A DNA stretch of 64,000 nucleotides from an uncultured Chloroflexia bacterium (GCA_963766675.1 CAVYBA010000003.1:3567-67566), one strand, 5' to 3'. Numbered from the stretch's first letter, positions 25,723 through 59,575 are shown. Notes: generated by a model from the sequence alone, not told the origin. Made by a program: numbers and translations.

Positions 25723-26091
25723 ATGGCCGAGAGCAAGAAGTTCGTGATCATGGCGACGCACGGGCCCGACGACCCGGAGATGGCGACGCTGCCGTTCGTG
25801 ATGGCTGGTGCGGCCGCTGCCGCCGACGTGCAGGTGGTCATGGGGTTCCAGGGCGAAGGCGTGCGGCTGATGCAGTGCGGCGTCGCGGAAACCGTCACGT
25901 CGCCGGGGTTCAAGCCGATGGTCGAGCTCATCGCGACCATCCGCGAATTCGGCGGCACGTTCCTGGTCGGTGCCCCGTGCATCAAGAGCCGGGACATCAG
26001 CGAGGTCGACCTCGTCGAGGGCGCGCACGTCGTGACCGCCGGACGGTTCGTTGCCGAGATCGCGTCGGCGACGAACACCCTGTTCTACTAG
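25723..26091 (+). CDS. DsrE family sulfur relay protein, copy 2
   Basis: HGPDDPE.ATLPF, FQGEGV, LVGAPC; AGGAGG RBS; paralog of 2761-3126. Confidence 0.85.
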   Translation: MAESKKFVIMATHGPDDPEMATLPFVMAGAAAAADVQVVMGFQGEGVRLMQCGVAETVTSPGFKPMVELIATIREFGGTFLVGAPCIKSRDISEVDLVEGAHVVTAGRFVAEIASATNTLFY

Positions 26092-26102
26092 GAGATGCGG
26101 CA

Positions 26103-26369
26103 GTGACAACGGCGATGACCGAAACGGAGCTCGCGGCGATCGGCAAGACGACCGTCGTGGACGCTCGCGGGGTGGCCTGCCCGGGGCCGATGATCGAGGC
26201 CAAGAAGGCCATGGGCGGCATCCCGGTGGGCGAGGTCATGGAGCTCTGGTCCGGTGACTCCCAGACCAAGGAGGACATGGGCTACTGGACCGAGATGGCC
26301 GGCCACACGTTCGTGGGCGTCATCCCCGCCCGTGGCTACGAGCGGCTGTTCATCCGGCGCGGCAAGTAG
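26103..26369 (+). CDS. tusA: TusA/SirA family sulfurtransferase, copy 2
   Basis: VDARGVACPGP; GGAG RBS before GTG 26103 (ATG 26115 also possible). Confidence 0.9.
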   Translation: MTTAMTETELAAIGKTTVVDARGVACPGPMIEAKKAMGGIPVGEVMELWSGDSQTKEDMGYWTEMAGHTFVGVIPARGYERLFIRRGK

Positions 26370-26389
26370 CGGATCGGGCGAGGACCTCG

Positions 26390-26794
26390 ATGCCGACGGC
26401 ATCCGAGCCAAGGGTGCTGGTGTTCTCGACGAATTCGATCTCCGATCCCGGGATCGACCTCGCGGGCAGCCTGCACATGCACTACTCGCCCGAGGTCCTC
26501 GTGACCAGCCTTCCCTGCACGAGCGCGATCAGGCCGGACTGGATCCTGTTCGCGCTCCAGCAGGGGTTCGACGGCGTCTTCATCGCCTCCGACGGGGACG
26601 AGTGCGCCTACCTTCCGGACTGCTCGCGACGATCGGCCCAGCTGATGCTGCACGCGCAGGATTTGCTCGCGGAACACGGGATCGACGATCGCCGACTGAA
26701 GATGGCGGCCATCTGCTCGGTCTGCGCGGAGTCGTTCACGAGGCAGATCCGGGAATTCACGGAGACCCTCGTGTCCCTGCGGGCGGCCGCGTGA
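26390..26794 (+). CDS. mvhD: MvhD/FlpD-like iron-sulfur subunit, copy 2
   Basis: LPCTSAIRP, GFDGVFIASDGDECAYLPDC, MAAICSVCAE. Confidence 0.8.
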   Translation: MPTASEPRVLVFSTNSISDPGIDLAGSLHMHYSPEVLVTSLPCTSAIRPDWILFALQQGFDGVFIASDGDECAYLPDCSRRSAQLMLHAQDLLAEHGIDDRRLKMAAICSVCAESFTRQIREFTETLVSLRAAA

Positions 26795-29538
26795 AGGACT
26801 ACGACGCCCTCGTGATCGGCAGCGGCATCGGCGGCATGGAATTGGCGATCAAGCTCGGCGACATGGGCTATCGGGTCCTCGTCGTGGAGAAGGAGCCGAG
26901 CATCGGCGGGCGAATGGTCCTGCTGAGCAAGGTCTTCCCGACGCTCGACTGCGCAAGCTGCATCGCCACGCCCAAGATGGCGGCCACGGCCCACCACCCG
27001 AACGTGACCGTCATGACCGACTCGGAGGTGACCGGCATCACGCGCGACGGCGGTGGCGGCTTCCACCTTCACGTCCATCGCCGGCCGCGCTTCGTCGACC
27101 TCGCCGCCTGCACCGGCTGCCGGAAATGCGAGCAGGCGTGCACGGTCGCCGTCCCCGATGAGTGGAACGGCGGAATGGTGTCCCGGCGCGCGGCCTACAT
27201 CGCCTATCCGCAGGCGATCCCCCAGAAAGCCCTGATCGAGCACCCGGGCGCGTCTCCGTGCACCGACGCCTGCCCGGCCGGGATCAAGGCCCACGGCTAC
27301 GTCTCGCTCGTCCGGAGCGGTCGCTACGAGGAGGCGTTTCGGCTCGTGCTCGACGCAACGCCGCTGGTCGAGACCCTCGGCCGCGCGTGCTACGCGCCGT
27401 GCGAGACCGCCTGCACCCGGGGCGAGCTCGAGGAGCCTGTCGCGATCCGCCGCCTCAAGCGCTTCGTCGCCGAGCGCCACGTCGCCGACGGCGACGGGAT
27501 GCAGATCGAATGTGCGTCCCCGAACGGCAGGCGGGTCGCGATCGTGGGCTCCGGCCCGGCAGGATTGACCGCCGCCTGGCATCTCCAGCGCGCCGGCTAT
27601 GCCGTTCGAATCCACGAGGCGGCCGACCAGCCCGGCGGCTTCCTCCGCCAGGCGATCCCGGGCTACCGACTGCCTGCCGAAGTGGTCGAACGGGATGTCG
27701 CGCGGGTCCGCGCGATCGGCGTCGAGATCATGACCGGTGCCTCTGTGACTGATCTGGAAACCCTCCGGGCCGATGGATTCGACGCCGTCCTGGTGGCGAG
27801 CGGCACACCCGAATCGCGGCCACTTGGCGTCCCAGGCGAGACGCTCCGGGGCGTCCGCTCCGGGGTGGATCTCCTGCGCGAGGTTCGGACGGGAACGTCA
27901 CCGGATCTGACCGGGCGGCGGGTCGTGGTGGTCGGCGCCGGGAACGTGGCCATGGACGCCGCACGCACGGCCCTGCGGCTGGGCGCGCTCGAGGTGACGG
28001 TCGCCTACCGACGTGGCCGGGACGAGATGCCGGCGCATCGCGCGGAGGTGGAGGACGCGCTCGCCGAGGGCGTCCGGTTCGAGTTCCACGTCGCGCCGCT
28101 CGAGGTCGTCGGGGACGGGCAGGGATGGGTGACGGGCCTGCTCTGCGAACGGACGGTGCCGGGTGCGCCCGACGCGTCGGGACGCCGCCGGCCCGAACCG
28201 GTGCCGGACAGCGGGTTCGATCTGGGTTGCGACGTCGTCGTCGTCGCGGTCGGCCTGGCGCCGGCGCTCGGCGCGCTTGCCGGTCCGCTTGGCGCGGCAC
28301 CCGACGGGCGCGCGGTGGTCGCCTCGCAGACCCTCCAGAGCCCCGTTCCGTGGCTGTTCGCCGCAGGCGACGTCGTCACCGGCCCGAGCGACATCGCGCA
28401 CGCGGTCGGTAACGGACGGCGCGCGGCGTCCGCCATTGATCACTGGCTACGCGGCGAGGAGCTAGACCCAACGGCCCGCCGTGACGACAGCGCCCGCGTG
28501 GTGGACCGGACCGACGTCATCGCCCGGCAGCGCTCATACGCCAACCGTCCGTCACGCCTCGCCCCGCCGGTGCTTTCCCCTGCCCCACGCGCGTTCTCGG
28601 AGGTCGAGCCGCCGATCACCGAGGCGCAGGCACGAGAGGCTGCGGGACGCTGCCTCGACTGCGGCGTGTGCTCCGAGTGCGGCGAGTGCGTCGCGGTCTG
28701 CCCCGCCGACGCGATCGATCTCGACCAGCGCGGCGAGGACCTGTCGCTCCACGTCGGCGGTGTCGTTGTCGCGACCGGTTACCGGCTGTTCGCGGCGGAC
28801 CTCAAGCCGCAGTACGGCTATGGCCGCTACCCGAACGTCATCACCGGCATGCAGATGGAGCGCCTCCTGTCGCCGACACGTCCGTACACCAGCCTGCTGC
28901 GCCCGAGCGACGGCACCATGCCGAAGCGGATCGCCTATGTCATGTGCACCGGCTCCCGCGACGAGAGCGTCGGCAACCCGCTGTGCTCGAAGTTCTGTTG
29001 CATGTACTCGCTCAAGCAGAACCAGCTGATCATGGGCGTGCTCCGGTTCGCCGAGGTGACCGTCCACTACATCGACATCCGGGCCGTCGGCAAGGGCTAC
29101 GACGAGTTCTACGAGCAGGCCAAGGTCATGGGCGCCCGCTTCGTGAAGGGCCGGGTGGCGAGCGTCCGCGAGACCTCGGGCGGCGGTCTCGTCCTGCGCT
29201 ACGAGGACATCGACAACGGCGGCCACGTCGCGGAGGCCGAGTACGACCTCGTCGTGCTCGCGGTCGGCGTGCAGCCGAACCCCGACGTGACGCGCCTGTT
29301 CGAGGGCGGTGCGATCGCGCTCGACGACTGGGCCTACGTCGACGAGGTCGACGAGGACTTCAGCCCGGCCGCGACCAGCATCCCGGGCGTCTTCGTCGCC
29401 GGCGCCGTCTCGGGACCCCGTGACATCCCGGAGTCGATCCTCCATGCCGGGGCGGCCGCGGTCCAGGTCGCGGCCCATCTCGAGTCGTCGGCTCGTGAGC
29501 ATCGCGAGGCCGCAGCAGAGGCCGAGGTGCCCGCATGA
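26791..29538 (+). CDS. hdrA: HdrA-like flavoprotein with inserted GltD/NfnB-type NAD(P)H module (HdrL type), copy 2
   Basis: GTG 26791 overlaps the mvhD stop; VIGSGIGG, FPTLDCASC, ferredoxin, Fer4_20-like CPAG..GRAC..PCE.AC, two further Rossmann motifs, YRRG, then HdrA C-half (YGRYPNVITGMQMER, CTGSRD, CSKFCC, IDIRA.GKGYDEFY). Confidence 0.93.
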   Translation: MKDYDALVIGSGIGGMELAIKLGDMGYRVLVVEKEPSIGGRMVLLSKVFPTLDCASCIATPKMAATAHHPNVTVMTDSEVTGITRDGGGGFHLHVHRRPRFVDLAACTGCRKCEQACTVAVPDEWNGGMVSRRAAYIAYPQAIPQKALIEHPGASPCTDACPAGIKAHGYVSLVRSGRYEEAFRLVLDATPLVETLGRACYAPCETACTRGELEEPVAIRRLKRFVAERHVADGDGMQIECASPNGRRVAIVGSGPAGLTAAWHLQRAGYAVRIHEAADQPGGFLRQAIPGYRLPAEVVERDVARVRAIGVEIMTGASVTDLETLRADGFDAVLVASGTPESRPLGVPGETLRGVRSGVDLLREVRTGTSPDLTGRRVVVVGAGNVAMDAARTALRLGALEVTVAYRRGRDEMPAHRAEVEDALAEGVRFEFHVAPLEVVGDGQGWVTGLLCERTVPGAPDASGRRRPEPVPDSGFDLGCDVVVVAVGLAPALGALAGPLGAAPDGRAVVASQTLQSPVPWLFAAGDVVTGPSDIAHAVGNGRRAASAIDHWLRGEELDPTARRDDSARVVDRTDVIARQRSYANRPSRLAPPVLSPAPRAFSEVEPPITEAQAREAAGRCLDCGVCSECGECVAVCPADAIDLDQRGEDLSLHVGGVVVATGYRLFAADLKPQYGYGRYPNVITGMQMERLLSPTRPYTSLLRPSDGTMPKRIAYVMCTGSRDESVGNPLCSKFCCMYSLKQNQLIMGVLRFAEVTVHYIDIRAVGKGYDEFYEQAKVMGARFVKGRVASVRETSGGGLVLRYEDIDNGGHVAEAEYDLVVLAVGVQPNPDVTRLFEGGAIALDDWAYVDEVDEDFSPAATSIPGVFVAGAVSGPRDIPESILHAGAAAVQVAAHLESSAREHREAAAEAEVPA

Positions 29539-31322
29539 CCGCCGCCGCAGGCCAGCAGCCGAACGGGGCCGCGGACCGCGTCGCCGGCGACTCCGCCCGC
29601 GACCCGGGACCGCTCGGCGGTGGACGCCTCGCCGTCTACGTTTGCCAGTGCGGCGGGAATATCGGCGACTACGTCGACACCGACCGGGTCATCGACGCCG
29701 TCAAGGATCTGCCCGGGGTGTGCGTCGCGCGGCATGCCATGTTCAGCTGCTCGGATACCAACCAGCAGGAGATCATCGACGACGTCGCGCGCGAACGGCT
29801 CGACGGCTTCGTCATGGCCTGCTGCTCGCCCAAGCTGCACCAGTTCACCTTCCGCGGAGTCGCCGGACGTGCCGGCGTGAACCCCTATCGGGTCACCCAG
29901 GTCAACATCCGCGAGCAGTGCTCGTGGACGCACACCAACGAGCCCGGCGCGGCAACGAGGAAGGCGGTCAAGCTCGTGAGCGCGGGCGTCGCGCGAGCGC
30001 GCCTGGCACAGCCGCTGGAACCGGTCGAGGTGCCGACCACCCCGCGCGTCGCCGTGATCGGCGGCGGGGTGGCGGGCATGCGCGCCGCGATCGGGCTCGC
30101 GGACGTCGGTTTCGAGGTCTGCCTGGTCGAACGCGAGGCCGAGCTGGGTGGTCAGGTCGGCCGGCTGGGCGAGCTGTTCCCGCGGCGAGTCAGCGGCCGG
30201 GCCCTCGTGGAGCGGATGCGTGCCGAGATCGCCCGCCGGCCCGGCATCTCGGTGCTGACGGGCGCGCGAGTCGTCGAGAAGGCCGGCACGTACGGCAACT
30301 ACACGATCACGATCCGCCGTGGCGACGAGACGAGCCAGGTGGACGTGGGCCAGATCGTGGTCTCGACCGGGTTCGAACCGTACGAGCCGGGGGCAGGCGA
30401 GCTCGGCTACGGCAGCCCGCGCGTGATCACCCTGCCCCAGTTCCGGCGGCTGCTGGACGAAGGCGAAGGTCCGCTCGTCCACGACGGGAAGCCCGTTCGG
30501 ACGATCGCGTACATCTACTGCGTCGGCAGCCGGGGCGCCGATCGCGCCTACTGTTCGCGCTACTGCTGCAGCGCCGCAGTCCACGCCTCGCTGCTCATCG
30601 TCGCCCGGGACCCGGAGGTTCGCCAGTACCACCTCTACCGCGACCTGCGGACCTACGGTCGCAATGAGGCGATGTTCAGCGAGTCCCGCAAGCACGGTTC
30701 GGCCTACCTGCGCTTCGCCGACGACGACCCGCCGGAGGTGACGATCGACGGGGACGCGGTTCACGTGACCGTGCGCGACCTGCTGACGGCGGGCGAGGAG
30801 ATGACGGTCACGGCCGACCTGCTCGTGCTGGTGACCGGGATGGTTCCCCGCGAGAACGTTGAGCTGGTGGGCGTGCTCAAGCTCCCGGTCGGTCGCGACG
30901 GCTTCTTCAACGAGATCCACACCAAGCTGCGGCCGGTCGAGACCGTGGTCGATGGCGTCCTGATCGCCGGGGCCTGCCAGTCGCCCAAGACGTCCGCCGA
31001 GAGCGTCGGCTCAGGGCTGGCCGCGGCGGCCCAGGCGGCCGCCGTGCTCAAGCGGGGCGTGGCCTCGCTGCACCCCCAGGTGGCGATCGTCGACCCCGCG
31101 CGCTGCGACGGCTGCGGCGAGTGCGTGACGGCCTGCCCGTTCAACGCGATCGAGATCCGCGGCAACAACGGTTCCAGCGTGGCCAATGTCGTGGCGGCGG
31201 GCTGCAAGGGCTGCGGCGCGTGTGCACCCGTCTGTCCGACCGGCGCGATCGATCTCCAGGGCTACAGCGATGCCGAGATGCGCGCGACGATCGTCGGCCT
31301 CCTCACGGAGGTGGCCTCATGA
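29535..31322 (+). CDS. hdrA: Second HdrA-family subunit (N-terminal Fe-S domain, FAD domain, C-terminal 2x[4Fe-4S]; QmoB-like arrangement)
   Basis: VYVCQCGGNI, ACCSPKLH, NIREQCSW, VIGGGVAG, YCVGSR..YCSRYCC, CDGCGECV..CP, CKGCGACA..CP. Confidence 0.92.
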   Translation: MTAAAGQQPNGAADRVAGDSARDPGPLGGGRLAVYVCQCGGNIGDYVDTDRVIDAVKDLPGVCVARHAMFSCSDTNQQEIIDDVARERLDGFVMACCSPKLHQFTFRGVAGRAGVNPYRVTQVNIREQCSWTHTNEPGAATRKAVKLVSAGVARARLAQPLEPVEVPTTPRVAVIGGGVAGMRAAIGLADVGFEVCLVEREAELGGQVGRLGELFPRRVSGRALVERMRAEIARRPGISVLTGARVVEKAGTYGNYTITIRRGDETSQVDVGQIVVSTGFEPYEPGAGELGYGSPRVITLPQFRRLLDEGEGPLVHDGKPVRTIAYIYCVGSRGADRAYCSRYCCSAAVHASLLIVARDPEVRQYHLYRDLRTYGRNEAMFSESRKHGSAYLRFADDDPPEVTIDGDAVHVTVRDLLTAGEEMTVTADLLVLVTGMVPRENVELVGVLKLPVGRDGFFNEIHTKLRPVETVVDGVLIAGACQSPKTSAESVGSGLAAAAQAAAVLKRGVASLHPQVAIVDPARCDGCGECVTACPFNAIEIRGNNGSSVANVVAAGCKGCGACAPVCPTGAIDLQGYSDAEMRATIVGLLTEVAS

Positions 31323-50956: not shown

Positions 50957-51015
50957 GATCGTCAAGTCGTCACCACGCCGGAAACGAGGATCAGTCCGGT
51001 GCGGTTAGGTCGGTT

Positions 51016-51037
51016 TGGTCGGGGCGAGAGGATTTGA
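51016..51037 (-). repeat. att-like site 1: 22-nt 3' end of tRNA-Pro
   Basis: Reverse complement TCAAATCCTCTCGCCCCGACCA = T-loop, T-stem, acceptor strand, ACCA. Confidence 0.8.
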
Positions 51038-51125
51038 CCCCGCGGAACGTAGCTCCTCGCGTCGCCCGAGGCGCTCCAAGAACGCAGGGAGACTCTCACC
51101 CAGCCAAAGTGGCCGGCCGGCCGAC

Positions 51126-52691
51126 CTACGGACCAAATACCTCGACCTCGCGCCAGGCCACCCACGACGGGCTGGCCACGGTTTCCACCCGGATCGCCTT
51201 CACACCCCGCATGGGTGTCGGCAGCACGTACCTCAGCACCTGCTCGTCCTCGGTCATCCCGTGAAACCGATGGAGCAGCACGAGCGAGCCGTTGCCGAGG
51301 CGTGCGTACAGCCGGTGGTCGGTGGGACCCGCCGGATACTGAGAAACGATCAGTCGGACGTCAGCGATTGTGTGGACACCGCCGAGGTCGACCTCGATCC
51401 AGCCGGGCGGCCCGGTGCCGCTGCTCCACAGCGTGTCGGGGTCGCCGTCCAGCGCGCCCTTGGCGGGCGACCCGGCAATCGATCGAGACCCCGTAGCCTT
51501 GTGGCCCAAGGCGAGATTCGCGGCGGCGCCCGGCACCGACCCGAGCGCCGCGTGATTTCGGAAGTAGGTGACGACGAGCCCGCTGAAGGTGGCGGGGTCG
51601 GTGTCTGGCAGCACCCGGTCGGGCTGGAGCATCCACGACTGGAATAGCACGTGGTCAGGGGCTGATCCGGCGGCCTCGAAGGCCTTGACGCGCGCGCCGG
51701 CAAGGGCGATCCAGGCCGCCCGATCAGTCTCGCTGCCACCGTTGTAGATCATGCCGATCGGAACGCCGCGTGACCTGGCAGACGAAGCCGCTTCCTGGGC
51801 GAGCGCGGGCCAGCCGCTACGCGACCAGTCGGCGTCAAGGTGGAGGAACGCGAACGGCTCGCCGCCCGCCGCACGATACGCGTCCAGCCACTCCCCCAAC
51901 CCGGCGGCTGACACAGGCGCCGGGAGCGGCTCGGTGTCACCGATGACGACAGCCGGGAAGACCGCACGCATCTGGTCGCGATAGGCCACCACGCCGGCGG
52001 CGATCCGATCCAGCGGCCAATGACAGGCATTCGGCCCGTCGTAAACGTGGGCGAAGAAGTAGGGCTCATCGAAGGCGATGATGTCGATGCGCCCGCCCGC
52101 GGCCAGGATCCTGGCCGCGATGAGCCGGCCCTCGTCCAGGCCGGCAAAGCTCTCCACGCCGGTCCCGCACCCCGAAGTGGCGTCCAGTGGCCCCGCCTCC
52201 ACGGCCAGGGCCATGCCTCGGCTGGCGATGCCCGCGACGGCCTCGCGCAGTTGATTGGGCGTGGCGTGGTAGGCCACCCACTCCCCGTAGAGCTTGTATA
52301 CGCCGATATACCGGGCGGCGGTGGACCAGGGCGCTCCAGCTTGGAACTGGGCCATGAAGTCGGTCGATCCCGTCCGGCCGGGCATCGGCGGCAGGGGCGC
52401 GAACCAGGCGAGCGGCCGCGCCGATAGGTCGACGGGCGTCGCGCCGGGCGTCGGGGCGGTTGACGGCGCAGATATCGCGGGCGTCGCCGCCACCACCGAC
52501 GGAACGATTGAAGCCGGCCTGCCCGACCCCAATGTGGTGACCGGAGGCTCAGCCGAACCTGCAGGAGCGCCGGTGGCCCGCGAGCGTGCCGGGGTGGACG
52601 TAGGCCCTGGGGCTGCGCAACCGGTTGCAAGTGCCACCATGACCGCGACGACCGCCAAGCTGCTTATGCCAACTCGCTTCGGCCTCGCCAT
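51126..52691 (-). CDS. Secreted/lipoprotein with putative glycoside-hydrolase-like domain and C-terminal discoidin (F5/8 type C) domain
   Basis: Start MARPKR, hydrophobic stretch ending LATGC, P/T/A linker, FDEPYF, ALDGDPDTLWSSG...WIEVDLG...EVEVFG. Confidence 0.75.
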   Translation of the reverse strand: MARPKRVGISSLAVVAVMVALATGCAAPGPTSTPARSRATGAPAGSAEPPVTTLGSGRPASIVPSVVAATPAISAPSTAPTPGATPVDLSARPLAWFAPLPPMPGRTGSTDFMAQFQAGAPWSTAARYIGVYKLYGEWVAYHATPNQLREAVAGIASRGMALAVEAGPLDATSGCGTGVESFAGLDEGRLIAARILAAGGRIDIIAFDEPYFFAHVYDGPNACHWPLDRIAAGVVAYRDQMRAVFPAVVIGDTEPLPAPVSAAGLGEWLDAYRAAGGEPFAFLHLDADWSRSGWPALAQEAASSARSRGVPIGMIYNGGSETDRAAWIALAGARVKAFEAAGSAPDHVLFQSWMLQPDRVLPDTDPATFSGLVVTYFRNHAALGSVPGAAANLALGHKATGSRSIAGSPAKGALDGDPDTLWSSGTGPPGWIEVDLGGVHTIADVRLIVSQYPAGPTDHRLYARLGNGSLVLLHRFHGMTEDEQVLRYVLPTPMRGVKAIRVETVASPSWVAWREVEVFGP

Positions 52692-53269
52692 CGCACCCTC
52701 CTTCTCGACGCGCGTCGATGATGCGCCAGGATGGCGTCGCCCTGATGCGACGGGCTCGAGTGCTCGGCTCGGCGGCGTCGTGAGATAGCCCATCTCGCGC
52801 CCCACCGCCACCGCTCACGCAGGCCGCACGTCAGCGGGCGCCTTCGGCCGCCTCGCGCTCATGTCTCCGGAGAATCCGACGATCGTCTTCCTGATCGCGA
52901 TGGTCGGATATCTGGCCCGGGTGATGGAGAGGGAGCGCGCGTCGCGGGTCGAGCCGCGGCTCGCAAGACACCGAGGAGGTGCGGCATTGAGCGTGACCAT
53001 CTGAGCGATAAGCGCGCCGATTGGCATCAAGGTCAGCCGGAGTGGCCAGTCCAACTTTGGATGGCGTCGAACGCCGTGCTGGTTCTGTTTCGCCGTCGGC
53101 GCAAAGGGTACTGGCCCACCGAGTGGTCCTGCGAATGTCCCGAGCCCCCCGGCCGGCTTTCCAGGGGTACATCTGGGTTGGACTGCCAAGAGGGCGAGCT
53201 GATAGTGAATTGGGTGACGGACGAGCGATGGAGTGCTGGCGCTCCAAGCCGACCGCCGAAGAGGTCGTT

Positions 53270-53285
53270 TGGTCGGGGCGAGAGG
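53270..53285 (-). repeat. att-like site 2
   Basis: TGGTCGGGGCGAGAGG; inside a 37-bp perfect repeat shared with site 6. Confidence 0.8.
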
Positions 53286-53314
53286 CTTAGCCCCCAGACG
53301 AACCGGGGCGTCGC

Positions 53315-53737
53315 TTATCCCGGGTCTTGCCCAGGCGAGATCACGTCGACGACGATCCCGAGCGCTGGCCACCTGGCGTCTGTCGTGACGATCCTGTCGG
53401 CTCCCAGCACCTGCGCGGTGGCGACGACGAGGGCGTCGGGAAGGCGCAACGCCCGCCCGTGCATGGCTCGCAAGGCGGCGGCAGCGGCAGCGATCGCCCG
53501 CGAGGCTGGTTCGACCCGAGCCGGCAGTGCATCGACGAACCGGTCGGTCGTCGCGACCGCCTCCGCACCCCGCCGGGATGGGGAGACGAGGCATTCGGCG
53601 TATGTCGAGGCTGGAAGCACGAGCTCGTCGCCGCGCCGCCGGGCCGCCGTCAGGGCCTCCCGTGCCTGGGCATGGTGCGGGTCGCCGGAGTCGAGGATGG
53701 CGATCACGAGCCCGGCGTCGAGGACAGTCAGTCCCAT
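53315..53737 (-). CDS. PIN domain toxin (VapC-like)
   Basis: VLDAG.VIA.LD..D.HH, YAECLV, LRLPDALVVATA, IVTTD. Confidence 0.9.
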   Translation of the reverse strand: MGLTVLDAGLVIAILDSGDPHHAQAREALTAARRRGDELVLPASTYAECLVSPSRRGAEAVATTDRFVDALPARVEPASRAIAAAAAALRAMHGRALRLPDALVVATAQVLGADRIVTTDARWPALGIVVDVISPGQDPG

Positions 53738-53976
53738 TCGTCGCGCAGGGCGTCAAGGTCGCCCGGCTCGAAGACCCCGGTGAGCGCGCCGGCGAATTGG
53801 GTCACCGGGTCGGCGTCGAGAATCAGGAGGACCTCGCCCGGACCACGTACCTCCGCGCGAAGGGCATCACCCGTCCGCAGTCCCGCGCCGCGAAGGGTCT
53901 CGACGGGCAGCGTCACCTGGTGCTTCGCACTGACACGCGTATACCCGCGTCGGCGTTGCTTGACTCGTTCCTTCAT
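53728..53976 (-). CDS. AbrB/MazE/SpoVT-type antitoxin
   Basis: TRVSAKHQVTLP...LR.AGLR.GD.L; overlaps the PIN gene. Confidence 0.88.
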   Translation of the reverse strand: MKERVKQRRRGYTRVSAKHQVTLPVETLRGAGLRTGDALRAEVRGPGEVLLILDADPVTQFAGALTGVFEPGDLDALRDEWD

Positions 53977-53986
53977 GAGTCAAGCA
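53957..53986. promoter_or_regulatory. 10-10-10 inverted repeat straddling the antitoxin start codon, likely operator
   Basis: TGCTTGACTC-N10-GAGTCAAGCA. Confidence 0.7.
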
Positions 53987-54073
53987 TAGTGCCATGGACG
54001 CGTCCCGGCAATGCCAGTCAATCCGAGGCACGTGCGGGGACCGAGGTGCGGCCCGGTGGCGTTGGGTCGAGTC

Positions 54074-54092
54074 TGGTCGGGGCGAGAGGATT
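54074..54092 (-). repeat. att-like site 3
   Basis: TGGTCGGGGCGAGAGGATT. Confidence 0.8.
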
Positions 54093-54232
54093 AGAGCCGA
54101 CACGGCGTCGCCAGTTCGGATCATCCCGGTGACGAACGTTCCGAGCTACGTCGACCGAGCCTCGGAGATCGCCTAGGTCTGCGACGATAAGCGGGTACCG
54201 GCAAGGGGCGCGCGCCTGCAGGCTCGGCTGGG

Positions 54233-54610
54233 TCAGGTTGCCTCGGGACCGTCCAGGTTGACCGTCACCGGGCCCTGGCCGACGCGGACGACGACGCCGT
54301 CGTTAGGGTCGGCACCGGCGTTGCCCTCGCGGTGCACGACGCCCTTCGGGATCAGCACGAAGTCCCCGGGCGCGACTTCGATCCGCTCGGACCCGCCGGG
54401 GCCAAACTCCACGAAGAACCGGCCGCGGGTGACGTGCCCGTACGTGTCGTGGCCGGGGTGGACGTGCCAGTCCAATTCCTGGTGCGGGGTGTTCTCGATA
54501 CGACCGACCCAGACGTGCCCATCAGCGAACGCCTCGAAGCGCGTGACGCCCGGCGTAGCGGTCTCGACGCCCAGGAGCTGGTCCTTCGTGACCAGGGTCG
54601 GCCGGTCCAT
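54233..54610 (-). CDS. Cupin domain protein
   Basis: WHVHP.HDTY, PGDFV.IPKG.VHRE; GGAGG RBS. Confidence 0.88.
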   Translation of the reverse strand: MDRPTLVTKDQLLGVETATPGVTRFEAFADGHVWVGRIENTPHQELDWHVHPGHDTYGHVTRGRFFVEFGPGGSERIEVAPGDFVLIPKGVVHREGNAGADPNDGVVVRVGQGPVTVNLDGPEAT

Positions 54611-54693
54611 GTTCCACCCTCCCTGAGCGAGCCGCGGCGAGGCCGAAGCAGATCCCGGAGTGTACTAAACGCGGGTAGATCGTTTGGTACTTC

Positions 54694-54708
54694 TGGTCGG
54701 GGCGAGAG
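54694..54708 (-). repeat. att-like site 4
   Basis: TGGTCGGGGCGAGAG. Confidence 0.78.
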
Positions 54709-54921
54709 ATAGCGCCAACACGTTCCAACTGTCCATCAGGATCGATGGCGGACGCGTCCCGAACCGTGCGTCGGACATCGCGTAGGCAGCATCCGCAGAG
54801 ATAGGGACTGGCGTTAGCGGCGTGCCCCCGACGGACTCGAACCCCCCAATGGCAAGGCATTGTGCTGGACTCCACCTCGAACTCGGATGAGTGGCGGCCA
54901 TCCGGGCGAGGGCTGAGTCCT

Positions 54922-55593
54922 TCAGGGTGATTGCAGGAGAAGATGCCAGTACGCCCAGTCCTCGTGCGCCTCCGTGTCCTGCTCGACAACGGCGAGACGT
55001 TCGGCCTCGACCCAGCGCATGACCTGGTCACGGCCGGGGTAGTAGTGGTAGCCCGCAACATCGCCTTCGATGACCTCGCCCCTGACAACCGGCAAGCCCT
55101 GCCCGACGAGGTCACTGAACGCCTCGTCGACCACGGCTTCAGCGACCTCCTCGACGGTCAGATACAGATGGCCGCCCGGGCGTACGGCACGATGGAGATT
55201 TGCGATGACAAGCGGCCAGTCCTCAGGGAAGACGTTCTCCATCGCGTCGATGGTCATGACGGCGTCGAATTCGGCCTCGAAGCGCAGCTCCTGGAGACCG
55301 ACCTGGTGGAGGGCGTCGGCGATCCCTCTCGCCCGGGCCTGTTCGAGCATCCCCACCGACTGGTCGATGCCGACGACACGGCGACCGGCAGCCGCGACCT
55401 GCGGGAAGTACTGACCCGTCCCGCACGGGGCGTCGAGCACAAGCCCGTCAGGCGGGCACGTCGCCACGAGCCGCTCGACGAACCGGTGCTGCGTGTCGAC
55501 CCGGTATGGGTGCTCGTCGTACGTTCGAGCCTCTGCGTTGTACGCAGCCTCGACCGCCGCCCGTCGTTCAAGGAGCCACGCCCGGCGGTCCAT
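54922..55593 (-). CDS. Class I SAM-dependent methyltransferase
   Basis: VLDAPCGTG, GIDQS.GML, FDAV..IDAME, PGG.LYL. Confidence 0.9.
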   Translation of the reverse strand: MDRRAWLLERRAAVEAAYNAEARTYDEHPYRVDTQHRFVERLVATCPPDGLVLDAPCGTGQYFPQVAAAGRRVVGIDQSVGMLEQARARGIADALHQVGLQELRFEAEFDAVMTIDAMENVFPEDWPLVIANLHRAVRPGGHLYLTVEEVAEAVVDEAFSDLVGQGLPVVRGEVIEGDVAGYHYYPGRDQVMRWVEAERLAVVEQDTEAHEDWAYWHLLLQSP

Positions 55594-55739
55594 GTCGCAC
55601 ATCTCCCATGCAATGGCGGATCCAACTTGTCGAGCCACCATCCTCCCACGTCCGGATCAGACGTCTGGGCACCTTGTGGGCAGCGGCGGGCAGGCTCTGG
55701 GCACATACACGCGTCACTTGGGCAGCGTCTGGGCACCTC

Positions 55740-56314
55740 GACGCTCTGCCCTGGGCACTCCCGTCCGCGACCCCGACCAGACCAAAGGGATGGCGCGGTC
55801 GCCGCGACGGGTAAGGGGTGCGGCCGGAAGGTCTACGAGGACGCCATTGGCAAGGTCCTGGATCGAGTTGCGCTCGGAGCCGGCTCGCTCACCCAGGTCG
55901 TCGGAATGGTCGCCGTTTCTGCGTCATCGCCTGATGAGCAGGCGCTCGTCCGCACCGAGCGGGAGCGTGACGCTGCCGTGGCGCGATACCGGCGGGACCG
56001 TGACAGCGCGTCGCTCGATCAGGCGATGGCCCGGCTGGACGCCGAAGAGCGGGAGGCTCGTCGCCCTCGCGACATCGATGGGGTCCCCGCCGATGTGGCG
56101 GTCCGCTACCTCCGGGAGCTGACGACGACCTAGAAGAAGGCAGACGGCGGCTCGGGTCGGCGGATGCTGGCGGAGGGCCCTGTGCAGCCGGATCGAGGTG
56201 TTGGGCGCAAGGCAGGCCACGATCCACCTCAGCGACGCAGCGGTGGCGTACGGGTTCGCGGCGGCGATCCCTGACCGGCTCGATGTGACAGTTGGGAATG
56301 GTCGGGCGAGAGGA
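55740..56314 (+). pseudogene. Decayed C-terminal part of a probable large serine recombinase, running into att site 5
   Basis: YEDAIGKVL..., coiled coil RTERERDAAVARYRRDRD, in-frame TAG at 56131-56133, +1 frameshift, then LCSRIEVLGARQATIHLSDAAVAYGFAAAIPDRLDVTVGNGR(GER). Family call from recalled resemblance; catalytic domain absent. Confidence 0.55.
56299..56314 (-). repeat. att-like site 5 (one G deleted)
   Basis: TGGTCGGGCGAGAGGA followed by cttGCCCCGACA. Confidence 0.75.
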
Positions 56315-56336
56315 CTTGCCCCGACAAACCGGGGCG

Positions 56337-56604
56337 GCCGAGGGCAACCCGCTCTTCGTCGAGCAGTTCGTTGCGTACATCTCCGGACCAGGCCGTCCCT
56401 GACGGAAGCCGTCTTGGCGACCGGACACCGCCCGATCTCGTCATCCCGCCGACGATCGGCGCACTCCTCGCGGCGCGTCTCGATCGCCTGCCGGATGTCG
56501 AGCGCCGTCTCCTCGAGCGGGCTGCCGTCGTTGGGCGAACGTTCTGGCATGTGCTGCTGCTTGGGCGGATACGTCCCGAAACGTGCGATCGCGCTGACGG
56601 ATGA
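56337..56604 (+). pseudogene. Internal fragment of a STAND ATPase/adenylate cyclase gene
   Basis: AEGNPLFVEQ..., IPPTIGALLAARLDRLP..ERRLLERAAVVGRTFW; no start or cyclase domain. Confidence 0.75.
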
Positions 56605-56660
56605 TCCGCCAGCGCGATCCGGGCCCGGCTGGAGGCCGTCCTCGGCCCCTGCTGGCATGT

Positions 56661-57014
56661 CTAGCCGTAGACGAGGACCTTGTAACCCGCCTTCGTGACC
56701 AGCTTGAGGCTCATCCACTGGCCCGACACGGTTGTCACGTTGACTCGTGGCGTGACCAGCTGGGCGCTGCCCCTATCGTCCCGGTTCAGCTGATACGCCG
56801 CGACGTTGCCGGTGACGAGAACCGCCAACACCAGGGTGCCGACGGGTCCACTGAGCCGGCGAGCGAGTCGCGCCGGGGTTCCACGCCGCTGCGTTGTTGC
56901 GATCCCTGCTGACATCATCAGCCTCCTGCCCTTTGTTGCGATAGCCGCGAGGAACCGACCTCGGCGGCGGATGGGACGGTGGACGGCGGGGTTCGAGTTG
57001 ATCTGCGTGTCCAT
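56661..57014 (-). CDS. Hypothetical protein with single TM/signal segment
   Basis: AAGGAGG before ATG 57014, second GGAGG before an internal ATG; GTLVLAVLVTGNVAA. Confidence 0.5.
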   Translation of the reverse strand: MDTQINSNPAVHRPIRRRGRFLAAIATKGRRLMMSAGIATTQRRGTPARLARRLSGPVGTLVLAVLVTGNVAAYQLNRDDRGSAQLVTPRVNVTTVSGQWMSLKLVTKAGYKVLVYG

Positions 57015-57097
57015 GGTTTGCCTCCTTGAGGGCGTCGTCGGCCAATGCCGGGTCGCCTGGATGGAATTGCTGTTGGTGGGATTCGGCTGGGCTGGGT

Positions 57098-58384
57098 TCA
57101 GGGCGCGCGTCGTTGCCAGGTCGGGTCGCTGATCGCATTCCAGGGCGCCGTGCGGACCGGCCCGCCGGCCGCGTCCAGGATCAACATTGGCGTGCCAAGC
57201 GTGGCTGCCGCGGGCCGGCCGAGGAGTTCGGAATCGTCAGGTGACCAGAGCCAGGCCGCGCAGCAAGCCGTCTCGACCGATCCGGCCGGGGCGATCTGCA
57301 TGCCGACACCGCTGCCGTCCGCCGGGACCACCCAACCCCGGACGTCGTCCTCGCCGCGCGTGAAGCCTTGGGCGAGGAACAGCCGCGTGCCGTCGTTCGA
57401 CCAGGTCGCATGGGCATTCCAGACGGCGCCGACCGGTGACGGAATCTCGCGGTCGCCGGTCCCGTCGGCGTTGACGACGTGCGTCTTCGCCGACAGTCCG
57501 TCCGTCGTGTTGCCCCACGTCCAGTAGGCGACCTTCGATCCGTCGGGCGACCAGCTCGGCCCCGCGAGGTCGAAGCCGGGCTCCATGTTGACGATCTGGC
57601 GTGTCTGGTTGGTCGATCGATCGAGGACGAACAGGCCAGTCCTGGCGCCTCGGCCGATGAACAGGATTTCGTTGCTGTCGGGCGGCCGGTAGGTTGGTTC
57701 CTCGGCCAGCATCCCGACGTCGAGCTGGCTGGCGCCACTGCCATCGGTCCGGGCGATCGTCATGCCCGAGGTGGTGGCGATCAGGAGCTCTCGTCCGTCG
57801 GGCGAGAACTTGTAGCGTTCCCAAGCTCGGCCGCCGGTAGCGGTCGCGAGACTCACCGGGGTTGGAGTGACCAGGGTGAGCCCGGTCCCATCGGAGCGGG
57901 CCACGTAGATTTGGCTGGTGCCGTCAGCCGCGAGCCGCGCGAACGCGATGTGCGTCCCGTCGAGCGAGAAGCGCGGGCCGCGGTCCGTCTCCGGGCCGGT
58001 GATGATCGCCGTCGCCGTGCCCGTCACGGGATCGGCGGTGTAGATGTCGTCGCCGGCGTCGTAGGCAATCACGCCATTCCGTGCCAGGCCGAACGGGGCC
58101 GGAACGCGCTGCTGGCTGCCGACGTAGACGATGGCGGCTGCGAGGAGGGCGAGAAGAACCACGATCGCCAGGACGAAGGACCGCAATGGCAGGCGTGGCA
58201 CGAAGACGGGCTGACGAACGGCGTCAACCATCGGGAGCCACCTTTCCAGGAACGTCCAGGCCGGTCGTTGCCGGATCGTGGCGGTGGTGGCCAGGACGTC
58301 GTCGATGTAGGCGGGATACGGCCCCATCGCGAGATCGCCGAGGATTTCGGGCAGGTCGCGGGTGAGCCGACGTTCGGTCGTCAT
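57098..58384 (-). CDS. Single-pass membrane protein with extracellular TolB/PD40 beta-propeller, probable anti-sigma
   Basis: One TM, repeats PRFSLDG..IAF, FSPDG, PSWSPDGSKVAY, WSNDG, WSPD; coupled to ECF sigma. Confidence 0.85.
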   Translation of the reverse strand: MTTERRLTRDLPEILGDLAMGPYPAYIDDVLATTATIRQRPAWTFLERWLPMVDAVRQPVFVPRLPLRSFVLAIVVLLALLAAAIVYVGSQQRVPAPFGLARNGVIAYDAGDDIYTADPVTGTATAIITGPETDRGPRFSLDGTHIAFARLAADGTSQIYVARSDGTGLTLVTPTPVSLATATGGRAWERYKFSPDGRELLIATTSGMTIARTDGSGASQLDVGMLAEEPTYRPPDSNEILFIGRGARTGLFVLDRSTNQTRQIVNMEPGFDLAGPSWSPDGSKVAYWTWGNTTDGLSAKTHVVNADGTGDREIPSPVGAVWNAHATWSNDGTRLFLAQGFTRGEDDVRGWVVPADGSGVGMQIAPAGSVETACCAAWLWSPDDSELLGRPAAATLGTPMLILDAAGGPVRTAPWNAISDPTWQRRAP

Positions 58385-58941
58385 GCGATCTGCCCTCCCG
58401 CGATTGACGGGGTCGACGTCGGTTCGGTCTCGATCGCGACTCGCATCGCGACCAACGCGCGATGCAGCCGGGACTTGACCGTTCCGAGCGGGATCGAGAG
58501 GGTCGCCGCGACGTCGGTCAACGGCAGCCCCATGTAGTAGTGCAGGACGACGATCGCCCGGCCTTGCGCGTCGAGCCCGCGGAGGACTTCGTCCACGAGC
58601 TGCCGATCGGCGTGAGCGATCGAGCTGTCCGGCAGAGCCGGCTGGTGAAGCGGCGTGAGCTCGACCTCGATGACCCGGCGGCGCCTGTGGCGGACCAGGT
58701 CGAGGCAGGCATTGACGGTGAGGCGATAGAGCCAGGCATCGAACCGGTCGGGATCTCGAAGCTTCCGGAGATCCCGCCAGGCGCGGATCAGCCCCTCCTG
58801 GACGGCGTCGCGTGCGAGCTCCGGATCCCGGAGGATGAGGCGAGCCGCCTGGTCCAGCCGCACGACGGCGGCGCGAGCGAGGTCGGCGAAGGCGTCATGA
58901 TCGCCTCCCCTTGCTCGCTCCACGAGCCATCGCTGGTCCAC
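58381..58941 (-). CDS. ECF sigma-70 factor
   Basis: GDHDAF, DAVQE..IRAWR.L..LRDPDRFDAWLYR..VN, GTVKSRLHRA. Confidence 0.93.
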   Translation of the reverse strand: MDQRWLVERARGGDHDAFADLARAAVVRLDQAARLILRDPELARDAVQEGLIRAWRDLRKLRDPDRFDAWLYRLTVNACLDLVRHRRRRVIEVELTPLHQPALPDSSIAHADRQLVDEVLRGLDAQGRAIVVLHYYMGLPLTDVAATLSIPLGTVKSRLHRALVAMRVAIETEPTSTPSIAGGQIA

Positions 58942-59173
58942 GGTCGCCTCGCATGTCGGACACGGCCACAGCGGTCGTGCCTCATAGCCTATGGCGACGA
59001 GATTCGGTTTTCGGTTCTTCGCGCAATCGGCCCTTACGGCTCAAGGCGCCCGGAGATCGGGATGGCGGCGGGTTCGACGCTGTGACAGGTCAGAGTCAGC
59101 ACCGTTTTCGCTCGCCGAGTGTCCCATCGACGGGCCAGAATCGAGGTGCGGTGCGGTATGGTCCGAGGGAGTT

Positions 59174-59189
59174 TGGTCGGGGCGAGAGG
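59174..59189 (-). repeat. att-like site 6
   Basis: TGGTCGGGGCGAGAGG; 59171-59207 identical to 53267-53303. Confidence 0.8.
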
Positions 59190-59575
59190 CTTAGCCCCCA
59201 GACGAACGACATAGTTGGCACGGTCCGAGTTGCGCCGCGACCTGCCGCCGAGCTACCTGCCTACGTGGCTTAACCGGGGTGCGGCCGCAGCAGTTGGTGT
59301 GACCCGCAACACTGCTTGGTTCCTCTCCCAGGGGCCGCACCGCGGGCATCGAATGAACGAATCGAGCCATGCCGCACGACGAGCCCGGCAGCCGCGCGGA
59401 CTCGGGTGCTGGCACTCAGTCCGGTCCCCGGCCGACCTGCTGACCGGCGCGCCCTAACACCGTGCATCACGATAATCTCCACTGTCGTTGCAGCCGATTC
59501 GGCCGGTTCCATTCCGTTCGCTGGCGGACGCGGGTTCCCGTCGATTGGAACGTGGATCCTCCGATTCGGGCGACC

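Follow-up and report, generated by a model that had tools for sequence, protein, structure and literature searches.

We analysed a window of 64,000 nucleotides from an uncultured Chloroflexia bacterium (C3:3567-67566 of GCA_963766675.1, an assembly of 7 contigs and 3.2 Mb that is 87% complete), in which six copies of a short sequence, here called sites 1 to 6, separate small gene units. These sites are probably attachment (att) junctions, produced when integrative elements insert at the 3' end of tRNA-Pro(CGG) by means of a large serine recombinase (LSR), in the Limnocylindrales, the clade of Chloroflexota to which the related genomes with such arrays belong. An earlier reading of the stretch, made from the sequence alone, had proposed that the sites are maintained recombinase-binding sites on units that have no integrase, built either as symmetric att half-sites or as attC-like hairpins, rather than passive scars. 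Our results support this interpretation in part.

Each site is built around a 16-nt core, TGGTCGGGGCGAGAGG, present in exact copies at sites 1, 2, 3 and 6 (starting at 51016, 53270, 54074 and 59174) and in damaged form at sites 4 and 5 (Table 1). Read on the opposite strand, the core matches the 3' end of tRNA-Pro(CGG), with CCA, the discriminator base and the 3' strands of both the acceptor stem and the T-stem; the identity with the tRNA begins at the 3' CCA and reaches as far as the first bases of the T-stem 3' strand, where it ends. Outside the window, the sole further exact copy of the core in the assembly is the 3' end of the tRNA-Pro(CGG) gene itself (C4:8459-8535, minus strand), and neither a tRNA gene nor a structured RNA was detected in the window with ARAGORN and Rfam (at the gathering thresholds and at E ≤ 1).

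The enzyme associated with the core is an LSR. When translated, 55765-56338 gives the C-terminal ~165 residues of a protein whose reading frame enters site 5 (...AIPDRLDVTVGNGR, then the core). This relic (55792-56298) matches in tblastn (68% over 122 aa, E 1e-43) the recombinase of genome G169, which represents another genus of the same family and carries an intact 505-aa open reading frame (ORF) ending in the core; at the nucleotide level the relic is 72% identical to this intact gene and 81% identical to relics in genomes G001 and G027. The left arm of site 4 is likewise a relic, of another LSR subfamily: its end, VLNAGRSFGTSGRGER followed by a stop, agrees in 12 of 15 residues with the tail LLNAGRAFSTDGRGERI of locus L038, with which this arm also clusters. 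Using the G169 recombinase as query, we retrieved 28 loci, mostly from metagenome-assembled genomes (MAGs) of Chloroflexota or 'Candidatus Limnocylindrales', with three labelled otherwise. At ten of the 28, the LSR frame ends in a core that directly abuts a tRNA-Pro called by ARAGORN, and the protein terminates in ...GRGERI, encoded by GGT CGG GGC GAG AGG ATT TGA, with the TGA stop inside the T-loop. The nine intact LSR ORFs (488-553 aa) have an invariant W.RES motif (R-E-S), a D..LVV.Y..R..R block and C287/C290/H303/C307, and the Pfam Resolvase catalytic domain is recognised with 29.4 bits. PF07508 proved too insensitive as an LSR detector, matching within the arrays in G032 only, and a fold search was therefore needed. 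The AlphaFold model (mean pLDDT 68.5) gave full-length Foldseek matches to 9dxh (E 2.9e-12), Bxb1 (9iu2, 8e-9), PhiC31 (9rah, 1e-8) and the LSR-DNA complex 4kis (7e-5). The C-terminal tail of the recombinase is set by the DNA to the right of the core (L022, L029, L033, L125/L016): it reads GRGERI and stop against the tRNA and has 6 to ~80 extra residues at other junctions, and therefore integration and excision alter the tail of the protein.

The genomic setting is that of an integration hotspot. The core alone was searched in 60 relatives, 12 of which have two to four co-oriented copies on one contig, and nine of these arrays were then compared. In all nine, every copy lies 3' of tRNA-Pro(CGG). 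Synteny with our genome is kept beyond the opposite end of the tRNA, at 67-81% identity, and on the array side only one short stretch, that of the LSR relic (window 55765-56338), is common to our genome and the relatives; synteny restricted to the non-array side is the signature of such a hotspot. The outer units of our array (11 kb and 8.4 kb) have no nucleotide-level match in congeners that would indicate synteny, and a first impression that G001 carries the units of our genome in another order proved wrong. In our genome, contig C3 ends in ...GGTGCGGTTCGGTGCGGTTAGGTGATGTTT and contig C4 starts with GCGAGAGGACTTGCCCCGACAAACCGG; the first supplies the left arm of a seventh site and the second its right part, with only GGTCGGG(G) missing, and none of the other contig ends of the assembly fit each other. 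C3 and C4 are thus probably joined across this seventh site, judging from the matching half-sites, which puts the array ~19.5 kb from tRNA-Pro and in the same orientation. In plus orientation, the layout would be sites 1 to 6 (8.2 kb), 11 kb, site 7, 8.4 kb and tRNA-Pro, giving seven partial copies of the tRNA and the tRNA itself at one locus. Along the direction of the tRNA, every core copy lies downstream of its 3' end, and the cargo genes of the array, all on the minus strand in the window, have the same direction as the tRNA. Contigs of several MAGs stop at or within ~650 nt of sites (C3 and C4 of our genome, G016:C2, G022:C71, G027:C5 and G032:C7), which fits either repeat collapse or structural variation within the sampled populations.

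We scored the complementarity of right arms to the left half of the site, register by register, in 36 non-redundant right arms from many assemblies. The dyad signal has a single peak (z 5.5), centred between bases 14 and 15 of GGTCGGGGCGAGAGG; the second-highest value, z 3.1, belongs to a register one base off, and all remaining ones have |z| ≤ 2.5. The axis falls on the GG that ends the core, a dinucleotide that is non-palindromic, as LSR central dinucleotides are. Since the identity with the tRNA ends at this GG and the dyad axis of the half-sites falls there as well, we infer that strand exchange takes place at the core-terminal GG, presumably by a 2-bp staggered cut. Apparent intact attP sites are long near-palindromes on the same axis; they occur in G169 (TGGTCGGGGC-N10-GCCCCGACCA flanking the axis), L027, the IMG/VR contig L142 and a congener family, 'GACGATGAGGTAGGTT...AACCTACCTCATCGTC', also named the 'GATGAGGTAGGT' family. 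The proposed symmetry of two recombinase half-sites is therefore borne out by the dyad peak across the collection of arms, and the inverted symmetry is weak in individual sites.

The arms on both sides of the core group into discrete families, which are found again in other genera, where the DNA further out is different. This holds for the left arm that we call L1 and for the right arms R1, R2 and R4, all of which behave as portable modules, and the flank conservation expected from the sequence-only reading was thus found; each of the right-arm strings that it had cited is also present in the sequence. On the left of the cores, site 5 has a relic of LSR subfamily i, site 4 a relic of subfamily iv, and sites 1, 3, 6 and 7 as well as the tRNA flank have L1; the left arm of site 2 is unclassified, and the left arms of sites 2, 4 and 5 are unrelated to the L1 family. 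On the right, R1 has the same 19-nt boundary at site 5, the seventh site, G169, L036, G063, L075 and L091. The flank that follows R4 is conserved over ~80-100 nt with 83-85% identity at L115 1112-1192 and L009 8288-8386, where the following genes differ. On the R2 side, a non-coding stretch of ~85 nt is conserved across genera and matches nothing in Rfam; an element end and a small RNA are both conceivable. It occurs once elsewhere in our genome (C2:882403-882495, minus strand), beside a degenerate core, GGTCGGAGGCTCAAGCGGCTTAGCCCCCAGAC.

L1, the "CGAGGTGCGG" arm, was found at 14 sites in at least nine assemblies, including three other genera and six metagenome contigs, always immediately 5' of the core and in one orientation. 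The motif CGAGG, as had been noticed from the sequence alone, starts at 50985, 54042 and 59142, with the cores at 51016, 54074 and 59174 following at distances of 31, 32 and 32 nt, and direct reading confirmed that CGAGGTGCGG is the same at 54042-54051 and 59142-59151. For the 36 nt to the left of the core, we counted identities in anchored, ungapped comparisons, with random genomic 36-mers as the null (10.5 ± 2.9 identities; P(≥22) = 1.5e-4, P(≥24) = 5e-6). Among sites 3, 6 and 7 and the live tRNA's flank, all six pairs have 21-25 of 36 positions in common (23/36 for sites 3 and 6). Site 1 joins L1 only via an indel, with a gapped score of 15 to sites 3 and 7 against a 99.9th percentile of 13 in the null. 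The proximal 21 nt read sGGTGCGGTCTGrTGGAGTCT, long forms having a second GGTGCGGTC 10 nt upstream, so that the module holds GGTGCGGTY repeats phased by 10 nt. Eight long-form copies end at -34 to -41 and four others keep only the proximal ~21-24 nt; the 12 copies compared are in register, with no indels. Neither an LSR remnant nor a recombinase gene was attached to L1 at any L1 site examined.

Several origins of L1 were considered and rejected. Read in the GRGER frame, the arm gives D.GAV.[YC]GL.E.GRGER with no indels, but third positions are not more variable than others (P 0.89) and 3 of 12 copies contain in-frame stops. This lack of a coding signature rules out that L1 is what remains of a gene's tail. 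A resemblance to the 3' end of LSR subfamily ii is unsupported, as the similar strings CGAGCTGCGGTGC (L029) and CGAGGTGCGGTGC (site 6) lie at different offsets and the anchored identity is 13.6/36, against 13.9/36 to an unrelated arm family. A dispersed MITE- or REP-like repeat does not fit either: in our genome nhmmer matches lie only beside cores, plus one weak orphan. This orphan (C2:561496-561525, minus strand, CGAGGTCCGGTCCGGTGCGGTCTGGAGGAGCGGCT, nhmmer E 0.007) has no tRNA-Pro core, lies ~850 nt from tRNA-Ile(TAT) and may be a chance match. Nor does L1 appear to serve as a promoter of the cargo, for vapB has, judged by eye only, its own -35/-10-like boxes between L1 and its ATG. From these comparisons, L1 is best described as a conserved non-coding module of 21-34 nt with a fixed boundary that appears to mark the right end of recombinase-less units; our guess at a function is a candidate accessory binding site.

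These observations suggest the following sequence of events. An autonomous element would insert at the 3' end of the tRNA by means of its own LSR. Because the LSR gene reads into the core and ends in GRGERI with its stop codon in the T-loop, the element carries a replacement tRNA end, and the core is the piece of the tRNA that each incoming element must replace. At the ten loci the LSR end and core abut an intact tRNA-Pro, and in our genome and its congeners displaced core copies lie distal to the tRNA; the flanks are hybrid and the function of the target is kept. Right arms would be the left ends (P'-type half-sites) of the units that follow, since, where LSR elements lie in tandem (L033), an LSR end is followed by an arm with which the next element starts; this would explain why right arms are imperfect mirror images of the core. 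Left arms would correspondingly be the right ends of the preceding units. The array probably grew by repeated integration followed by erosion, and units ending in L1 would, in the simplest view, be non-autonomous passengers relying on the LSR of another element.

Evidence bearing on the mobility of such units comes mainly from the 804-bp VapBC unit between sites 2 and 3. A unit with 88% nucleotide identity over 720 nt is present in another genus (G169/L125), where the homology begins exactly at the core and resumes in L1; VapB and VapC of our genome and G169 are 97.6% and 89% identical at the amino acid level, and the chromosomal MFS gene beside the tRNA, the single yardstick gene in this comparison, is 75% identical between the same genomes. 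This gene replaced window 26000-30000 as the divergence yardstick because the latter is accessory DNA. To the left, the VapBC unit borders on an LSR gene in G169, on the F5/8-type unit in our genome and on an L1 site in L075, and its right neighbours differ too. The core-bounded recurrence at 88% identity in another genus makes movement of recombinase-less units in trans plausible but unproven. L091 1885-1975 looks like an empty unit: a decayed site is followed directly by an R1 arm, then by an L1 arm and an intact core, and no cargo intervenes. The identities and neighbours of the VapBC unit and the L091 arrangement would fit units that move by recombination at cores.

Extending this, rather than excluding the att junction reading, L1, core and right arm (~70 nt) could form a portable site, and recombinase-less units of 0.6-11 kb could still be excised, circularised and re-inserted at tRNA-Pro or any core by an LSR acting in trans, as a serine analogue of integron cassettes or as a kind of pseudo-SCC (staphylococcal cassette chromosome). 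We regard such live cassettes as possible and on balance doubtful. The VapBC unit is core-bounded in three contexts (our genome, G169/L125 and L075) with an identity above that of the chromosomal gene, the outer boundaries of L1 and R1 are fixed in at least five contexts each and abut in L091, the cores at all L1 sites of our genome are perfect and those at both sites flanked by LSR relics (4 and 5) are mutated, and the co-orientation of all cargo genes and the breaks of several MAG contigs at sites would also be expected. Against this stand the lack of an LSR in our genome, the decayed sites (4 and 5, C2:882.4k and L091) and the fact that wild-type LSRs normally join attP with attB only. Moreover, in G153 the same VapBC module lies inside an eroded element with an LSR of subfamily ii, so erosion alone can yield small units. 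An even more specific proposal, which we put forward tentatively, is that L1, core and right arm make up a self-contained ~70-nt site at which incoming LSRs capture, shuffle and export short units at tRNA-Pro, a double-strand analogue of the integron, with the GGTGCGGTY repeats binding an accessory protein or a second domain that licenses the reaction.

The opposite possibility is that each site is the fossil of a whole-element integration, the units being leftovers of deletions and the similarity of the arms reflecting common descent. The window itself offers examples of such decay: the LSR relics of ~28 codons at site 4 and ~165 codons at site 5 show erosion to near nothing, and both adjoin mutated cores, so these two sites are dead scars. 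An orphan right-arm-like half-site at 55771-55791 sits exactly at the cut-off point of the LSR relic and may mark a deletion or inversion endpoint. The same picture was described for Prochlorococcus islands (10.1101/2020.12.28.424599). As an account of all sites, passive scarring nevertheless seems unlikely, since random deletion predicts relics of many lengths, whereas the long L1 copies all end between -34 and -41, 12 copies being in register with no recombinase remnant, L1 has no coding signature and R1 has a fixed 19-nt boundary. Hence, of the claim that these are maintained recombinase sites on integrase-less units and not passive scars, the recombinase sites stand, but sites 4 and 5 have degraded LSR genes as their left arms, and their damaged cores have the look of scars.

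L1 might also be the native flank downstream of tRNA-Pro, the B arm of attB, copied along whenever tRNA-adjacent DNA moved. L1 abuts an intact tRNA in our genome, L131 and L044; however, GGTGCGG occurs 12-32 nt from the core in only 4 of 151 genomes of the family, and seven congeners have seven different tRNA-adjacent sequences, which makes this origin improbable.

The attC-like hairpins of the sequence-only reading, single-stranded DNA folds recombined by a tyrosine recombinase in an integron-like or Xer-dependent manner, could account for small co-oriented units with several toxin-antitoxin pairs and for the 11-13-bp hairpin of R1-type sites, but we consider them very nearly excluded: in our genome PF00589 (Phage_integrase) matches only two genes, both far off on C2, no Phage_integrase lies in or beside the arrays of the nine relatives, many genomes have a serine recombinase gene joined physically to the core, and signals of folding or arm covariation are missing from most or all of the sites. 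Compared with shuffled sequences, sites 1, 2, 3, 4 and 6 fold no better as single strands (z +0.7 to -0.06), with site 5 at z -0.9, and only intact R1-type sites fold better (the seventh site, z -4.6; the G169 copy, z -3.6). The test of arm covariation that had been suggested with the sequence-only reading, run on 47 junctions at variable positions 15-26 nt from the axis, gave none (P 0.12-0.87 against permuted arms). Conservation of the flanks, which had been named beside covariation as a mark of maintained sites, is thus present and covariation is not. The complementarity of the arms is limited to fixed positions that face the invariant core, 4, 6, 9, 10 and 13 nt from the axis, a pattern of protein-binding half-sites and not of a maintained hairpin.

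Some observations weigh against the reading of the sites as LSR-made att junctions at tRNA-Pro. Profile and tblastn searches found no intact LSR in our 87%-complete assembly, therefore nothing shows present activity. L1 was never seen attached to a recombinase gene, and its origin as an element end is therefore argued from position only; it also extends past the ~25 bp usually required for an LSR half-site (for Bxb1, substrates shorter than 50 bp suffice; PMC1470463). Furthermore, the identity of the VapBC units is set against one yardstick gene only, the crossover position is deduced and not mapped, and the C3-C4 join rests on matched half-sites at two contig ends, not on reads.

By analogy, the locus appears to be a known kind of system, a tRNA-anchored island built in the manner of tycheposons and SCC, with L1 as one unexplained module. 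In Prochlorococcus islands, elements are inserted side by side at the 3' end of a tRNA and are divided only by partial tRNAs, older elements are displaced outward by newer arrivals, and the older events can be recognised from integrase fragments and surplus partial tRNAs (10.1101/2020.12.28.424599). As in those tycheposon islands, our array has partial tRNA copies between elements as well as degenerate integrase fragments. It differs in that every recombinase seen here is an LSR, whereas 910 of 937 tycheposon recombinases are tyrosine enzymes and only a minority are LSRs (10.1101/2020.12.28.424599), in that the LSR frame crosses the replaced tRNA end and stops in the T-loop, in the host, a soil and freshwater class of Chloroflexota, and in the many units of only 0.6-3 kb that end in L1, which are not described in that study.

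The array also resembles composite elements of other bacteria. SCC and SCCmec use the LSRs CcrAB or CcrC to insert at one chromosomal site, the 3' end of the protein gene rlmH/orfX; tandem SCC composites have direct repeats of the integration site at their boundaries, together with imperfect inverted repeats, and ccr-less pseudo-SCC units rely on the recombinase of a neighbour. In contrast to SCC, the target here is a tRNA and the recombinase gene is fused to the att site instead of being internal, and we know of no counterpart of L1 in SCC. In the accretion of streptococcal integrative conjugative and mobilisable elements (ICEs and IMEs), att-flanked units lacking recombination and transfer genes (CIMEs) can be moved by the enzyme of a related element; those systems are mostly based on tyrosine integrases and have larger units, and mobilisation of our units is a prediction. 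With the att sites of Bxb1, PhiC31 and A118, our sites have in common a recombinase of the same fold and short imperfect dyads on a non-palindromic central dinucleotide (here presumably GG). Unlike those phage sites, they target a tRNA, require identity over 14 nt to one side of the axis and have a left arm, L1, that reaches ~35-48 nt from the axis. The likeness to integrons is on the surface only (co-oriented short units, many toxin-antitoxin pairs, a repeated site between them), as IntI, an attC folding signal and arm covariation are absent and the recombinase is a serine enzyme. Serine recombinases rarely target tRNAs. An LSR frame that ends in the T-loop of a tRNA, this host clade and the L1 module were not found described in the literature.

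The att junction reading would explain the repeat array as a recombination hotspot and name the enzyme family responsible. In the Limnocylindrales, which are abundant, uncultured inhabitants of soil and freshwater, flexible genes such as toxin-antitoxin pairs, sigma factors, sensor kinases and defence-like helicases appear to gather at one tRNA gene via serine recombinases. With the stop codon of the recombinase gene lying in the T-loop, attP and attB are sharply defined as a pair, which makes them a possible integration tool. Should it be true that L1 licenses movement in trans, this would be a new way of mobilising gene cassettes.

Table 1. Cores, arms, recombinase relics and cargo genes of the array (positions counted from the first nucleotide of the window)
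Feature	Position	Strand	Remarks
Left arm of site 1	50985-51015	+	Short L1 variant, CGAGGATCAGTCCGGTGCGGTTAGGTCGGTT; same short form as G153, L044
Core of site 1	51016-51031	+	Exact
Right arm of site 1	51032-51055	+	ATTTGACCCCGCGGAACGTAGC; same type as ...CCCCGCGGAACCTACCTCATCG arms in congeners
Cargo of unit 1	51126-52811	-	561-aa protein with F5/8 type C domain
Core of site 2	53270-53285	+	Exact
Right arm of site 2	53286-53311	+	R2/R1-like, CTTAGCCCCCAGACGAACCGGGGCG; left end of VapBC unit; homology to G169 unit begins exactly at core
VapC (PIN)	53315-53737	-	Cargo of 804-bp unit, sites 2 to 3
VapB (MazE/AbrB-like)	53728-53976	-	Cargo of 804-bp unit, sites 2 to 3
Left arm of site 3	54042-54073	+	L1 long form; 23-25/36 to site 6, site 7 and tRNA flank; arm cluster 26
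Core of site 3	54074-54089	+	Exact
Right arm and flank of site 3	54090-54172	+	R4; conserved in G001 and metagenome contig L115
Cupin, 125 aa	54233-54610	-	Cargo
Left arm of site 4, LSR relic	54611-54693	+	Subfamily iv; last ~28 codons, reads ..VLNAGRSFGTSGRGER and stop
Core of site 4	54694-54709	+	Damaged: last G>A, within the inferred crossover dinucleotide
SAM-dependent methyltransferase, 239 aa	54922-55641	-	Cargo
Orphan right-arm-like half-site	55771-55791	+	GACCCCGACCAGACCAAAGGG; inverted copy of GTCTGGTCGGGG, no adjoining core
LSR relic	55792-56298	+	Subfamily i; ~165 C-terminal codons, N-terminal part gone, one in-frame TAG, one frameshift
Core of site 5	56299-56313	+	Damaged: G-run short of one G
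Right arm of site 5	56314-56332	+	R1, ACTTGCCCCGACAAACCGG; mirror image of left half-site
PD40/WD40-like beta-propeller protein	57098-58384	-	Cargo
ECF-type sigma factor	58381-58941	-	Cargo
Left arm of site 6	59142-59173	+	L1 long form; nhmmer E 1.4e-4
Core of site 6	59174-59189	+	Exact
Right arm and flank of site 6	59190-59252	+	R2; conserved in L047 (1267-1329) and G001 array

Other cargo was seen in relatives that retain LSR elements. As to replication genes (primase, helicase), which autonomous tycheposon-like members carry, the element of G032 encodes a 697-aa DUF3631 protein. That of G169 (L020 5931-11899) carries a SNF2-type helicase with a NOV_C domain and a Schlafen/AlbA_2 protein, a defence-like combination, and its left end was not found within 28 kb, which leaves its P' arm unassigned; an 822-aa neighbour of the helicase has no Pfam match, and a primase domain was not demonstrated with Pfam in the elements of G032 or G169. 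In our genome, the 11-kb unit between sites 6 and 7 contains, beyond the window, a 96-aa fragment (C3:71094-71384, minus strand) that resembles, by eye, the N-terminal helix-turn-helix part of an IS481/IS3-type transposase. Within the window, TGGGCA(C/G) occurs seven times at 55662-55758, in four cases as (T/C)CTGGGCAC, with spacings of 7-32 nt; the copies fall in the 150 nt upstream of the methyltransferase gene (start 55641, minus strand), and the series looks like an operator or iteron array.

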